From Escherichia coli (GTDB lineage: Bacteria > Pseudomonadota > Gammaproteobacteria > Enterobacterales > Enterobacteriaceae): a stretch of 64,000 bases of DNA. The notes under the pieces were generated by a model that did no database searches, had not been told where the DNA came from, and saw only the letters and a program-made list of their open reading frames with translations. A program made the position numbers and the translations under genes. Positions 12,059 to 35,930 of this stretch are shown here, piece by piece. The stretch is taken from assembly GCF_001677475.2 (NCBI RefSeq), contig NZ_CP015229.1; one strand, 5' to 3'. How positions within the stretch are numbered: the stretch's first letter is position 1; every line of letters starts with the position of its first letter.

Positions 12059-13270
12059 ATGGCTAAGAATATTCCATTCAAACTGATTCTTGAAAAAGCA
12101 AAAGATTACCAGGCGGACATGACTCGCTTCCTGCGCGATATGGTTGCGATCCCCAGCGAAAGCTGCGACGAAAAACGCGTAGTACATCGTATTAAAGAAG
12201 AGATGGAAAAAGTCGGCTTCGATAAAGTTGAAATCGACCCGATGGGTAACGTTCTCGGCTATATCGGCCACGGCCCGCGTCTGGTGGCAATGGACGCTCA
12301 TATTGATACCGTCGGCATTGGCAACATCAAAAACTGGGACTTCGATCCGTACGAAGGCATGGAAACTGATGAGCTGATCGGTGGTCGCGGTACTTCCGAC
12401 CAGGAAGGCGGCATGGCATCTATGGTTTATGCCGGTAAAATCATTAAAGACCTCGGTCTGGAAGATGAATATACCCTGCTGGTTACCGGTACGGTGCAGG
12501 AAGAAGACTGCGACGGTCTGTGCTGGCAGTACATTATTGAACAATCCGGCATTCGCCCGGAATTTGTGGTCAGTACCGAACCAACCGACTGCCAGGTATA
12601 CCGTGGTCAGCGCGGTCGTATGGAAATTCGCATTGATGTTCAGGGTGTTAGCTGCCACGGTTCTGCACCAGAACGCGGTGATAACGCCATTTTCAAAATG
12701 GGGCCGATTCTTGGCGAATTACAAGAACTGTCCCAACGTTTGGGCTATGACGAATTCCTCGGCAAAGGCACCCTCACCGTTTCTGAAATCTTCTTCACAT
12801 CCCCAAGCCGTTGCGCTGTAGCAGATAGCTGCGCCGTCTCTATTGACCGCCGTCTGACCTGGGGCGAAACCTGGGAAGGCGCGCTGGACGAAATCCGCGC
12901 CCTGCCTGCAGTACAGAAAGCTAACGCGGTTGTTTCTATGTACAACTACGACCGTCCGTCCTGGACTGGCCTGGTTTACCCAACCGAATGCTATTTCCCG
13001 ACCTGGAAAGTGGAAGAAGATCACTTCACCGTTAAAGCACTGGTGAATGCCTACGAAGGTCTGTTTGGCAAAGCGCCGGTTGTTGATAAGTGGACCTTCT
13101 CAACTAACGGCGTATCTATCATGGGCCGTCACGGCATTCCGGTGATCGGCTTTGGCCCAGGTAAAGAACCTGAAGCGCATGCACCTAACGAAAAAACCTG
13201 GAAATCTCACCTGGTGACCTGTGCCGCGATGTACGCGGCAATCCCGTTAAGCTGGCTGGCAACCGAATAA
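12059..13270 (+). CDS. ygeY: M20-family peptidase / amidohydrolase
   Basis: 403 aa; M20/ArgE/DapE-like metal-binding motifs. Confidence 0.85.
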
Positions 13271-17401: not shown

Positions 17402-18172
17402 CTAATTCACAAATCTGCGCGCGATTGCAGGATGTTCTTGTATATCGCCCAGCCAGATTGCCTCTACGTTGTGTTGTTGCAGCGGTTGAAGGAGCTCGCT
17501 TTGCGCAATCGCATTCTCACATTGAGAAAAACGGTTAATGAACCAGACTCGCCGACAACCTTGCGGTACGTTTTTAAATGCGCCCTGAGGGTGGCGAACC
17601 AGCGCAACGAGATCGCTCAGTTGCAAGGTTGCATCAGGTGTTAACCCGGTAATATCAGCAAACTGCGACCAGCGATGGACATTTTCTGTGCTCACTTTCG
17701 CACCCAAAATATGTCCTCCCATCACAGCAATCACGCAGCAACTGCTTTTGGGTATGCAAGGTTCGTGCTCATCAGGCGCTTTTAACGGCATTCCACGCGA
17801 GCCATCTGCCTCAATGAGAATTACGTCACACTCTGGTCGTTGCACCAGTGCATCAATCGCTTCTGGCGTAAATCCCTGCACTTTTCCCTGGTTCGCTTTC
17901 CAGCTGTGAAAACAAAATGAAATGGGGGATGTAAGAGACGTATGAGGAAGCATGGCGGGATCACGACAGAAAACCACGGGCCAGTGAGACGTTGGCATAA
18001 ACATATGTGTCGTCGTAGTGATTAACACACGCCTGCCGCTAGCCTGGAGTAGTTCTGCCAGCCAAAAAAGCAAGCTGGTTTTCCCCCCAGCACCAACAAC
18101 AGAAATCACAGTGGGACGTTTCTGCGCGCCTAAATCAATGAATAATGCCGATGGGTCAACTATACTTTTCAC
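17402..18172 (-). CDS. yqeC: YqeC; P-loop protein (second selenium-dependent molybdenum hydroxylase marker)
   Basis: 256 aa; Walker A-like VVGAGGKTS near the N-terminus. Confidence 0.85.
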   Translation of the reverse strand: MKSIVDPSALFIDLGAQKRPTVISVVGAGGKTSLLFWLAELLQASGRRVLITTTTHMFMPTSHWPVVFCRDPAMLPHTSLTSPISFCFHSWKANQGKVQGFTPEAIDALVQRPECDVILIEADGSRGMPLKAPDEHEPCIPKSSCCVIAVMGGHILGAKVSTENVHRWSQFADITGLTPDATLQLSDLVALVRHPQGAFKNVPQGCRRVWFINRFSQCENAIAQSELLQPLQQHNVEAIWLGDIQEHPAIARRFVN

Positions 18173-18853: not shown

Positions 18854-19087
18854 AAAACGTAGTTAAACGATTGCGTTCAAATATTTAACCCTTCCAGTTC
18901 TCTTTATCATAATGATAAGGAATCACTGATTTTGAGAAAAGAGAAAAAGTGATAAATGGGTTGCCAATAATAATTTCCAGGAGTGATTTTAATTCTCATT
19001 TGGCACCTGTGAGTTCATTCACAAAAAGCCCCTAAGTTTCGAGCCGCCTCACATTTTTTTATATTTCCCGCCAAACCTGGCAAGAGT

Positions 19088-31640: not shown

Positions 31641-32130
31641 ACAGAGGATTCTCACCGCTGGCAACAATACGCTGCTGGCGGACTCGCCTGAGTTCTCTTT
31701 CAGTAAGCAACTGCAGCGCCTGTGTTGGGCAAGATTCAACGCAGGCTGGCCCCTCTTCCCGCTGTTCACAGAGATCGCATTTCACGATTTGTTGCCGGGT
31801 ATCCCCCGGCAACGACTGAATGGTGATCATTCCAAACGGGCACGCACTGACGCAACTCTGACAGCCAATACAACGGGCAGAATTGGTCTGCACCACCTGC
31901 TCGCCCATCGTCAGCGCCCCCACGGGGCAAGCGCCAACACAAGGGGCGTTTTCACACTGATGGCACATCACCGGCGCACTGATGCTGTCCAGTCGCTGTA
32001 CCTTCAGCCGGGGTAAAAAGACATCGGCATTCAACTCCTGTTCTGAAGGGTGAGCGACCACACAGGCTACTTCACAAGTACGGCAGCCAATACAGTCAGC
32101 CGGATTAACGATAACTAACGATTTCATCAC
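31639..32130 (-). CDS. ygfS: 4Fe-4S ferredoxin-type protein
   Basis: 163 aa with multiple CxxCxxCxxxCP motifs. Confidence 0.88.
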
Positions 32131-34046
32131 GATGCCTTCGTATCAAACAGAGTTAACATATCGCGCGCCGCCTGCCTTCCTGCGGCCATTGCAGTGACAA
32201 CCAGATCCGCGCCATGAACTGCATCACCACCAGCAAAGACTTTTTTCAGATGCGTCTGGGTAGGTAAATACCCGACGTCACCGGTTTGAATCAGGCCCCA
32301 TTTATCGAGTTTAATTCCGCTGCCCTGCAACCACGGCATGGCATGCGCCTGGAAACCAAAGGCCATAATGAGAACATCGGCGGGCAATTCAAACTCTGAA
32401 CCCGCTACCGGACGAGGACGACGGCGACCATCCGGCCCCGGCTCACCCATGGCGGTACGAATCAGGCCCACCGCAGTTAAACGCCCATCTTCGTCACAAG
32501 CGATATATTGCGGCTGAACATTGAACTGAAACTCGACACCTTCCTCGCGCGCATTGACCACCTCTTTGCGCGAGCCCGGCATACTGACTTCATCACGACG
32601 ATACGCGCAGGTCACGCTGGCGGCATTGAGGCGGATGGAAGTCCGCAAACAATCCATGGTCGTATCGCCACCGCCCAATACCACGACTCGCTTACCTTCC
32701 ACATCCGTCAGCGGATACTCTTCAGACTCCGGCAACCCCATGAGCTGGCGGGTATGGGCAGTCAGGAATGGTAGAGCCTGAATGACACCGGGCGCATCTT
32801 CATGCGGCAGATCTGCTCGCATCATCCCGTAAGTCCCCACGCCGATGAAAACTGCATCATATTCAGAAGTTAAATCGCTAAAGGCAATATCGCGGCCAAT
32901 TTCACAGTTAAGATGAAAGTCGATTCCCATTGCGGTGAATATCTCTCGCCGCTGGCTTAATACCGTTTTATCGAGTTTGAAAGGAGGTATGCCAAAAGTC
33001 AGCATACCGCCAATTTCTGGATGGCGATCAAAGACATCAACCTGAACTCCTGCGCGCGCCAAAATATCAGCACACCCTAACCCTGCAGGCCCTGCGCCAA
33101 TCACCGCCACTTTTTCGATACGGGGAACAACTTTGCTGACATCGGGACGCCAGCCCATCGCCAGCGCGGTATCGGTAATGTAGCGTTCCAGATTCCCGAT
33201 AGAGACTGCGCCAGAGTGATCTTTCAAAGTACATGCGCCTTCACAAAGACGGTCCTGTGGACATACCCTGCCGCAGATTTCTGGCAAGGAACTGGTCTGG
33301 TGGCAAAGTTCTGCCGCTTCAATAATCTTTCCTTCCTGCACCAGACGGATGTAATCCGGAATAGCGTTATGCAGCGGGCAATGCCAGTTGCAGTTAGCTT
33401 TTTCGGCGCAATAAACACAGCGGTCACTCTCATAAGTCGCTTGTTGTGGATCCAGCCCGTAATAGATTTCGCCAAAGTGGGTTTTCCGTTCACTCGCTGA
33501 AATTTTATCTGCGCCTTTACGCGAGTTAACGGGGAGCAACGCTGCACTGCGAGATGGCTGAGCGTCTGATGACGCTTTTCCTGCTGCCGTTTTGCGCTGG
33601 CGGACCACCTTTATCTGTTGCAACCCTTTATCGTCCATCAGCCGTAACGCCTGTGTTGGGCAGACTTCAATACAGGCTTGCGTGCCGGAACTACGCTGGT
33701 TACAAAGGTCGCATTTCTGCGCAATCGTATCGACCATCTCAACGACGCCAAAGGGGCAAGCGATTGCGCATCTTTTACAACCAATACATTTTTGCTCGTC
33801 CAGTTGTACGCTATCGGGCTGGAAAGTCAGAGCATTAACCGGACAAGCCGTAACGCAAGGGGCATTGTTGCAGTGATGGCAGGCCACCGGATTCGCAGCC
33901 TGGCCTTTCCCTACAACGTGGATACGCGGTCGAAAGTCACTGTGACTCAGCGGCCAGTTTTCTTGATTATGTGCCATCGCACAGGCAATTTCACAAGCAT
34001 GACAGCCTATACATTCCGCAGCTTCAGCAGCGATAAACTTATTCAT
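32127..34046 (-). CDS. ygfT: fused 4Fe-4S / FAD-NAD(P) pyridine nucleotide-disulfide oxidoreductase
   Basis: Translation from [23 protein letters not shown]; Rossmann motif [12 protein letters not shown]; supplied ORF extends 5 codons upstream; stop overlaps the ygfS start. Confidence 0.88.
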
Positions 34047-34397
34047 TTGCATCCCTTTCATTTAATGAGTTATGTCTTCTCAAATTTCGCGATGCAATAA
34101 ATGGGCATATATTAGGTAGCATGGCCGATTTAATTATAATTTTGCGACTGAGTTCAAATTATTGCCCCTCAATCTGTGCCGCTTTCATTATTTCAACATT
34201 GCCGACCAAAAGAGAGCTAACCAGATAAAAACGATTAAATACGAGAGTGCGACATGCCAGAATGATTAATGAAATATCAATATGAGAAAATTACAGATAA
34301 TTCCATTGTCAGGTTCTCTTCTCATTTTCGTGGTTTAACCACGATTATGTGATTGCCTCCGCAATTCCTGTCTCTAACTCCCCTTCCTCGCAAAAAC

Positions 34398-34413
34398 TGG
34401 CACTCCACGAGCA
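34398..34413 (+). promoter_or_regulatory. candidate sigma54 promoter upstream of uacT: TGGCACtccacgaGCA
   Basis: TGGCAC at -24 and GC at -12 with canonical spacing, about 69 nt upstream of uacT. Confidence 0.35.
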
Positions 34414-34481
34414 TGTGTTTAGACAGTTTCATTAACGTAAACGGTTGCTTTTTACTCTGGCGAGCGAAAGGAGAAACACTG

Positions 34482-35930
34482 ATGAGCGCCATAGATTCCC
34501 AACTTCCCTCATCTTCAGGGCAAGATCGCCCAACTGATGAGGTTGACCGCATATTATCACCAGGAAAGCTGATCATACTCGGTCTGCAACACGTCCTTGT
34601 CATGTACGCAGGTGCAGTCGCTGTTCCTCTTATGATTGGTGACCGACTGGGCCTCTCAAAAGAAGCTATTGCGATGCTCATTAGCTCGGATCTCTTTTGC
34701 TGCGGGATCGTCACATTATTGCAATGTATCGGTATCGGCCGCTTTATGGGGATCCGCCTGCCGGTGATTATGTCGGTGACCTTCGCCGCTGTAACACCAA
34801 TGATAGCCATTGGGATGAACCCGGATATCGGCCTGCTGGGGATATTCGGTGCCACTATCGCCGCGGGTTTTATCACCACATTATTAGCGCCACTTATCGG
34901 TCGCTTGATGCCTTTATTCCCGCCACTGGTTACCGGTGTGGTTATTACTTCTATCGGACTTAGCATCATTCAGGTGGGTATTGACTGGGCCGCAGGAGGT
35001 AAAGGGAATCCGCAATATGGTAATCCTGTTTATTTAGGTATCTCCTTTGCTGTCTTAATTTTTATCTTGCTCATTACTCGCTATGCGAAAGGATTTATGT
35101 CCAACGTCGCCGTATTACTGGGGATTGTATTTGGCTTTTTACTTTCGTGGATGATGAATGAAGTCAATTTATCCGGGCTACATGATGCTTCATGGTTTGC
35201 GATTGTCACGCCGATGTCATTTGGTATGCCGATTTTCGATCCCGTTTCCATTCTGACCATGACTGCCGTGTTAATCATCGTGTTTATCGAGTCGATGGGG
35301 ATGTTCCTGGCACTGGGTGAAATAGTCGGTCGTAAACTCTCTTCACACGATATTATTCGCGGGTTGCGTGTCGATGGCGTAGGGACAATGATAGGCGGAA
35401 CGTTTAACAGCTTCCCCCACACGTCATTTTCTCAAAACGTTGGCCTGGTTAGCGTGACGCGCGTTCATAGCCGCTGGGTGTGTATTTCTTCGGGAATTAT
35501 ATTAATCCTGTTTGGCATGGTGCCAAAAATGGCGGTGCTGGTCGCCTCCATTCCGCAATTTGTGCTGGGCGGTGCTGGGCTGGTGATGTTCGGCATGGTA
35601 CTGGCGACAGGGATTCGAATTCTGTCGCGCTGTAACTACACCACCAACCGTTACAACCTCTATATTGTGGCGATCAGTCTCGGCGTTGGCATGACTCCGA
35701 CGCTCTCTCACGATTTCTTTTCTAAGTTACCGGCCGTACTGCAACCGTTGCTGCATAGCGGCATTATGCTCGCAACCCTTAGCGCCGTTGTGCTGAACGT
35801 CTTCTTTAATGGCTATCAGCATCATGCTGATCTGGTGAAGGAATCCGTCTCTGATAAAGATTTAAAAGTCAGGACAGTACGTATGTGGCTTCTGATGCGC
35901 AAGCTGAAGAAAAATGAGCATGGAGAATAA
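34482..35930 (+). CDS. uacT: uric acid permease (NCS2/NAT family)
   Basis: Translation from MSAIDSQLPSSSGQDRPTDE; supplied ORF has a 43-codon extension; multi-pass membrane protein. Confidence 0.88.
   Translation: MSAIDSQLPSSSGQDRPTDEVDRILSPGKLIILGLQHVLVMYAGAVAVPLMIGDRLGLSKEAIAMLISSDLFCCGIVTLLQCIGIGRFMGIRLPVIMSVTFAAVTPMIAIGMNPDIGLLGIFGATIAAGFITTLLAPLIGRLMPLFPPLVTGVVITSIGLSIIQVGIDWAAGGKGNPQYGNPVYLGISFAVLIFILLITRYAKGFMSNVAVLLGIVFGFLLSWMMNEVNLSGLHDASWFAIVTPMSFGMPIFDPVSILTMTAVLIIVFIESMGMFLALGEIVGRKLSSHDIIRGLRVDGVGTMIGGTFNSFPHTSFSQNVGLVSVTRVHSRWVCISSGIILILFGMVPKMAVLVASIPQFVLGGAGLVMFGMVLATGIRILSRCNYTTNRYNLYIVAISLGVGMTPTLSHDFFSKLPAVLQPLLHSGIMLATLSAVVLNVFFNGYQHHADLVKESVSDKDLKVRTVRMWLLMRKLKKNEHGE

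Follow-up and report, generated by a model that had tools for sequence, protein, structure and literature searches.

Sigma-54 promoters are usually pictured as poised closed complexes, with IHF usually found at the place where, in the purine/urate cluster of Escherichia coli, a CRP-like site sits. Within this cluster, sigma-54 sites have already been published for xdhA, ygeW and ygfK (OS29–OS31), for ygfT, and for one position inside yqeC (PMC4591121). The YgeV iModulon has been described and ygfT dependence reported (PMC10602906), and the regulation of anaerobic urate degradation by gut bacteria has been called poorly understood (PMC12507026). What is new here is a candidate sigma-54-type promoter for uacT, the urate symporter gene of the cluster.

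The window, that is the whole 64-kb stretch of E. coli DNA that was analysed, was annotated from RefSeq and matches the SMS-3-5 region (99.9% identity over a 1-kb query around the element). The annotated gene order of the cluster is xdhABC-ygeV-ygeWXY-hyuA-...-ygfK-ssnA-ygfM-xdhD-xanQ-guaD-ghxQ-ygfS-ygfT-uacT. An IS1A-family transposase gene and a tRNA-Gly gene (window positions ~1330–2353) are located just upstream of the cluster, between yqeH and actS. The divergent genes ygfT and uacT are separated by an intergenic region of 435 bp, and the product of ygeV is presumed to be the activator acting on the candidate uacT promoter. Within the uacT coding sequence, the segment CGTCACATTATTGCAATG (34711–34728) is an intragenic PhoB ChIP site in a K-12 table (PMC10294691). 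The features considered are the following.

7302–9080, minus strand: ygeV, annotated as 'sigma-54 interaction domain-containing protein', the enhancer-binding protein encoded in the cluster.
32127–34046, minus strand: ygfT coding sequence, annotated as formate-dependent uric acid utilization protein, divergent from uacT, ATG at 34046.
34093–34109, minus strand: sigma-54 site of ygfT, TATGCCCATTTATTGCA (TATGCCCGTTTATTGCA in K-12), ChIP-verified in K-12 and scoring 6.0 bits in this strain.
34143–34158, no strand: CRP/FNR-like site TGCGACTGAGTTCAAA, which precedes the sigma-54 motif centre of ygfT by 49.5 bp and mirrors the uacT side.
34275–34287, no strand: upstream dyad TATCAATATGAGA, candidate YgeV enhancer site, flanked by the divergent promoters of ygfT and uacT; the uacT motif centre is 124 bp downstream.
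34348–34363, no strand: CRP-like site TGTGATTGCCTCCGCA, with 8 of 10 matches to TGTGA-N6-TCACA.
34397–34413, plus strand: candidate sigma-54 promoter core CTGGCACTCCACGAGCA (equivalent to CTGGCACtccacgaGCA), read from the sequence as GG-N10-GC.
34423–34425, plus strand: predicted uacT transcription start (motif centre 34405 plus 19), giving a leader of about 58 nt.
34482–35930, plus strand: uacT (ygfU), annotated by RefSeq as urate/H+ symporter coding sequence, the gene served by the candidate promoter.

The first-pass annotation had pointed to TGGCAC and GC at canonical spacing about 69 nt before the uacT start, and the sequence confirms it (34397–34413, plus strand; ATG at 34482). In the segment cTGGCACtccacgaGCAt (34397–34414, plus strand), TGGCAC occupies 34398–34403 and GCA 34411–34413. 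Between the GG (34399–34400) and the GC (34411–34412) there are 10 nt, as is canonical for the sigma-54 -24 and -12 elements. The -24 box is CTGGCAC (34397–34403) and the -12 box is an atypical GAGCA(T) (34409–34414). The element has the same orientation as uacT, ends 69 nt before its ATG, and is identical in K-12 MG1655. If transcription is taken to begin 19 bp past the motif centre, by the convention of Bonocora et al. 2015 (PMC4591121), the uacT start is inferred to be near 34424.

The pattern TGGCAC-N7-GC is found 8 times in the 64-kb window, mostly within genes, versus 3.5 ± 1.9 times in shuffled sequences, and the estimated expectation for one strand of the 435-bp intergenic region is ~0.01–0.03. 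Taken alone, the match is mildly unlikely and only weak evidence. Weight-matrix scoring, which the first-pass annotation had proposed, was performed with a matrix derived from the E. coli sigma-54 sites verified by ChIP in Bonocora et al. 2015 (PMC4591121; 135 sites), with a poor outcome. The 17-mer CTGGCACTCCACGAGCA scores 5.3 bits, under all 135 verified sites (minimum 6.6, median 14.5), and ranks 184th in the window. The low score arises because GA replaces TT ahead of the GC in the -12 box. An A directly before the GC occurs in 1 of the 135 verified sites and, by our reading, in none of 149 low-stringency motifs. The element had also been called the cleanest -24 element of the set: its -24 half is indeed perfect, but tied with that of ygeW, and the -12 half reads GAGCA instead of TTGCA. 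Nor is it the fourth candidate sigma-54 promoter of the cluster, as four intergenic sites and one inside yqeC were already ChIP-verified, which makes it the fifth or sixth. It is nevertheless the best sigma-54 match directed at uacT in a matrix scan of the intergenic region. A low matrix score is no disqualification in this regulon, because ygfT, whose site is ChIP-verified, reaches only 6.0 bits in this strain.

To examine conservation, the DNA preceding uacT was aligned for seven sequences representing five genera (E. coli, E. albertii, Citrobacter sp. R56, C. freundii, Serratia oryzae, Kluyvera and Pluralibacter), with orthologues taken from one genome per species. The mean column identity is 52%, and 24 of 250 columns are invariant. 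Ten of these constitute CTGGCA and GCAT at fixed spacing, nine belong to TGTGA-N7-C-N-C-NN-TT, a CRP-like site, and two are in the dyad. All nine key sigma-54 positions (CTGGCA and GCA) are invariant in the seven sequences (hypergeometric P = 1.4e-10). The spacer between the -24 and -12 boxes varies (TCCACGA, CCCACGA, TGTCTGC, TCCCTAA, CACCTAA, CGGATAA), and the A before the GC is kept in six of the seven species. Among the orthologues, the element is found from -74 to -148 relative to the uacT ATG. The distance from the CRP-like site to the element is 48.5–49.5 bp in all the aligned orthologues, and that from the dyad to the element is 121–132 bp in 6 of the 7 other sequences and 157 bp in Pluralibacter. 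As the distance to the ATG varies while the spacing to the CRP-like site and to the dyad is kept, the block appears to be a promoter module rather than an element of the mRNA leader.

Within the species, 4941 of 5315 E. coli genomes (93%) carry the 86-bp core unchanged. K-12 and SMS-3-5 do not differ between 34242 and 34462, and have eight differences in the ygfT-proximal half of the intergenic region. Before the Morganella uacT orthologue there is a canonical sigma-54 site, TTGGTCTGTATTTTGCT, that scores 13.5 bits, with a similar dyad upstream. In the M. psychrotolerans locus (L008, ~977–993), TTGGTCTGTATTTTGCT comes right after a terminator-like hairpin and TATCAATGTGATA is located ~185 bp upstream; no CRP-like site is present at the 48.5-bp position of this uacT site. 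In Kluyvera (L006), a second sigma-54-like site, TCGGCATTTTTATCGCT, is found ~132 nt before the uacT ATG and 30 nt upstream of the conserved CTGGCATCACCTAAGCA, which it outscores with 9.8 bits. Most of the distant uacT homologues, in Hafnia, Edwardsiella, Aeromonas and Burkholderiales, have no comparable sigma-54 element and are for this reason uninformative on the module. One Pandoraea locus (L015) has a single sigma-54 match of 11.1 bits.

The CRP-like site of uacT is centred at 34355.5, 49.5 bp upstream of the sigma-54 motif centre and about -68.5 from the predicted start. All seven orthologues keep its TGTGA and both C's of its second half-site. With a threshold of at least 8 of 10 matches to TGTGA-N6-TCACA, seven CRP-like matches are present in 1650 bp of regulatory DNA, versus 0.98 expected. 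Such sites (3480–3495, 9392–9407, 19008–19023, 19038–19053, 34143–34158 and 34348–34363) are found upstream of every sigma-54 promoter of the cluster, at quantised distances. Between the centre of the CRP-like site and that of the sigma-54 motif, the distance is 48.5 bp for xdhA and ygfK, 49.5 bp for ygfT and for the uacT candidate, and 58.5 bp for ygeW; ygfK has a second, perfect site, TGTGAGTTCATTCACA, at 78.5 bp. On the ygfT side, Citrobacter, Serratia oryzae and Kluyvera retain the spacing of 48.5–49.5 bp. The half-site TTTGA on this side does not distinguish CRP from FNR, whereas TGTGA on the uacT side is a CRP-type half-site. A C/T-rich tract (e.g. TTCCTTCCTCCCCTAACGC) separates the CRP-like site from the -24 box at both xdhA (3497–3520) and uacT (34366–34391).

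Further upstream, exact copies of the 13-mer dyad TATCAATATGAGA are found in the window at only two places, 9236–9248 (plus strand, ygeV-ygeW) and 34275–34287 (plus strand, ygfT-uacT). A copy with one mismatch is present upstream of xdhA (3418–3430, minus strand) and a palindromic variant, TATCATAATGATA, upstream of ygfK (18905–18917). Located upstream of all the sigma-54 promoters of the cluster, the dyad is probably the enhancer site of YgeV. Another copy with one mismatch is inside ygeY (12296–12308, minus strand). A second motif, TAATT(T/C)TCATTTGGCA, which contains a TCTCAT half-dyad, is common to the upstream regions of xdhA (3289–3305) and ygfK (18988–19003); the similar TTCTCATTTT is found upstream of uacT (34318–34325). 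The perfect 15-bp palindrome CGTGGTTTAACCACG (34329–34343) sits between the dyad and the CRP-like site. It was considered as an activator site and rejected, since the window has no second copy and its conservation does not extend to E. albertii or other species.

To our knowledge, an enhancer-binding protein acts only through sigma-54, and for this reason the membership of uacT in the YgeV iModulon counts in favour of sigma-54. The iModulon comprises uacT together with xdhABC, ygeWXY, hyuA, ygfK-ssnA-ygfM-xdhD and ygfT (PMC12133099 table; PMC10602906).

In K-12, no sigma-54 peak is present at the uacT element (~3029312 in U00096.2, 3031290 in U00096.3) in the ChIP-seq, ChIP-exo and genomic SELEX maps. 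In high-stringency ChIP-seq, the only peak of this intergenic region is that of ygfT at 3029005 (U00096.2; OS32, motif centre 3029008, FAT 3; PMC4591121), ~307 bp from the uacT element in K-12 coordinates; in the window, the two sites are 304 bp apart. At low stringency, no peak is listed from 2948012 to 3085050 (Bonocora et al. 2015, PMC4591121). The cultures were grown in M9 with glycerol (PMC4591121). Since they grew on glycerol, CRP should have been active, and low cAMP was rejected as the cause of the negative result at uacT. ChIP-exo gives only the ygfT site (B83, 3030971–3030985 in U00096.3), and the RpoN regulon table of the same study includes ygfS and ygfT without uacT; elsewhere, two peaks 396 bp apart were separated (PMC9735260). 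In vitro genomic SELEX retrieved only the ygeV/ygeW spacer in the cluster. As xdhA, ygfK and ygfT were missed as well, its negative result at uacT is not decisive.

The RpoN region 3028352–3029976 from the ChIP-chip data of Cho 2014 is unusually broad (1625 bp); it covers the uacT element and cannot resolve it. By our calculation, its midpoint is 3029164, and that of the ygfT and uacT motifs ~3029160. That the region is centred midway between both motifs is only suggestive. It is probable that the uacT core binds the holoenzyme too weakly to give a detectable closed complex under laboratory conditions. In the searchable literature, taken outside EcoCyc and RegulonDB, no report of a sigma-54 promoter for uacT was found, nor anything specific on the regulation of uacT/ygfU, its rpoN or CRP dependence or the mapping of its start. 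The locus is not named in the text and supplements of Schaefer 2015 (PMC4551910).

A consensus scan found no sigma-70 promoter between 34000 and 34520. Class I CRP sites are centred near -61.5, -71.5 or -82.5. Were CTGGCA a -35 hexamer, the CRP-like site would fall at about -77.5, out of helical phase with these positions (own calculation). CTGGCA as -35 or GAGCAT as -10 was rejected on account of this phasing, together with the absence, by eye, of a conserved partner hexamer in the orthologues; in the alignment read by eye, no -10 hexamer is conserved 16–18 bp downstream of CTGGCA. A search of the intergenic region for known RNA families returned only a meaningless sub-threshold match.

Against this background, the block CTGGCA...GCAT could be the site of another protein, such as a urate- or purine-responsive regulator, with uacT transcribed from an unrecognised activator-dependent sigma-70 promoter. 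Sigma-54 is not detected at uacT in ChIP-seq and ChIP-exo, and the non-canonical -12 box, which keeps its A in six of the seven species and has not drifted to the optimal T, suggests that sigma-54 affinity is possibly not what is selected. However, the element has no dyad symmetry, and its invariant bases coincide exactly with those read by sigma-54, namely GG, GC and the adjacent bases, and their spacing is exactly that of sigma-54. Its placement with respect to the CRP-like site also matches that of the verified motifs at xdhA, ygfK and ygfT. With no conserved -10, an empty sigma-70 scan and an implied CRP position that is out of phase, the involvement of another protein is considered improbable.

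A second alternative is that the element is a weak or decaying, non-productive sigma-54 site, with uacT expressed from elsewhere, for example from a weak sigma-70 promoter that depends on CRP, and only indirectly co-expressed with the cluster. For many sigma-54 sites of E. coli, no productive role is known (PMC4591121), the occupancy at uacT is below detection, and the RNA-seq counts of uacT are very low in a published K-12 dataset (5 and 4; PMC10294691). Decay, however, would not keep nine key bases across five genera together with a fixed spacing to two conserved elements. The core is identical in 93% of the E. coli genomes and no alternative promoter is visible, so little probability is granted to a non-productive site. 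Finally, a chance TGGCAC-N7-GC match without function, with which the 8 occurrences against 3.5 expected, mostly inside genes, and the rank of 184th would agree, is extremely improbable and already effectively refuted by the comparative data, namely the conservation (P = 1.4e-10), the geometry of the module and the invariance within the species.

We consider it fairly probable that the uacT element is a genuine, intrinsically weak, YgeV-dependent sigma-54 promoter core, which is part of a conserved module of three pieces. The observations behind this explanation are the sequence itself, its conservation, a geometry in common with ChIP-verified sites, the inclusion of uacT among the YgeV iModulon genes and the failure to find a sigma-70 promoter. 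The sigma-54 reading of the first-pass annotation is thus partly supported: the conservation, the CRP-like spacing, the dyad and the iModulon speak for it, the weight matrix and the K-12 binding maps against it.

From these observations we infer how the three pieces would work together. Sigma-54 RNA polymerase would recognise the perfect CTGGCAC and the sub-optimal GAGCA, in which an A stands for the near-universal T before the GC. YgeV would bind the dyad TATCAATATGAGA ~124 bp upstream, which would be common to the divergent ygfT promoter. Bound by CRP, the CRP-like site 49.5 bp upstream of the core (~-68.5) may bend or phase the DNA, or contact the polymerase, and so let YgeV reach the closed complex and open it with ATP. 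Transcription would start near 34424, with a uacT mRNA leader of ~58 nt.

More tentatively, the cluster promoters may represent a distinct sigma-54 class, in which a CRP-like site is locked 48.5–49.5 bp upstream in the usual place of IHF. The ygfT and uacT promoters would be deliberately crippled in complementary halves, the GG of the -24 box in one and the T of the -12 box in the other, and uacT would not be pre-loaded with sigma-54 holoenzyme, whose recruitment would require both CRP and urate-activated YgeV. This extension is possible but doubtful.

If uacT does have its own promoter under the control of YgeV, sigma-54 and CRP, urate uptake would be switched together with the catabolic enzymes. 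Gut bacteria that degrade urate anaerobically are being pursued as a means of lowering host uric acid, and the uacT promoter would offer reporters and strain engineering a defined target. It would further document that genome-wide occupancy maps can miss a conserved sigma-54 promoter. The more interesting by-products of the analysis are the fixed spacing between the CRP-like site and the core and the complementary degeneracy of the divergent pair. The former, being common to the promoters of the cluster, is directly testable.

The xdhA, ygeW and ygfK promoters resemble that of uacT in having a CRP-like site upstream of the core and a related dyad further upstream. They differ from it by their matrix scores of 14.5–15.8 bits, the top three of the window (xdhA at 3528, ygeW at 9450 and ygfK at 19086 in the matrix scan), by the T before the GC (or GT in ygeW), and by their ChIP peaks (FAT 3–26). 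The site inside yqeC, TGAGCACGAACCTTGCA (17755–17771, minus strand), corresponds to the published IS34; it is directed at yqeB and scores 9.7 bits in our scan.

In comparison with the canonical enterobacterial sigma-54 promoter (YTGGCACG-N4-TTGCW, as in glnAp2, hypA and pspA), the uacT element has GA for TT before the GC and no pre-bound closed complex was detected in vivo, whereas the GG/GC spacing, the perfect CTGGCAC, the location 60–90 nt before the start codon and the cognate enhancer-binding protein encoded nearby are alike. The -12 box has one parallel: among the ChIP-verified sites of E. coli, only IS16 in paaY, TTGGCATGGAAAAAGCA, has AGCA at -12 (FAT 5). As IS16 is ChIP-verified, sigma-54 can bind an AGCA -12 box in vivo. 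Unlike the uacT element, IS16 is intragenic and its spacer is A-rich, which the matrix favours, instead of C-rich.

The closest relative is the ygfT promoter in the same intergenic region. Sigma-54 occupies it in ChIP-seq and ChIP-exo, in contrast to uacT. The two have in common the 49.5-bp spacing to a CRP-like site, the membership in the YgeV iModulon and a similarly poor matrix score (6.0 versus 5.3 bits), and the upstream dyad would serve both. Their defects are complementary. At ygfT, the -24 box is degenerate (TATGCC, with TG for GG) and the -12 box canonical (TTGCA), whereas at uacT it is the -24 box that is perfect and the -12 box that is degenerate. In every species examined, the ygfT -24 box is without GG (TATGCC, ATCGCC, CGTGTC; loci L018, L004, L005 and L006) and TTGCA is perfect. 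The most economical reading is that of a divergent pair of weak sigma-54 promoters with a common enhancer and mirrored CRP-like sites.
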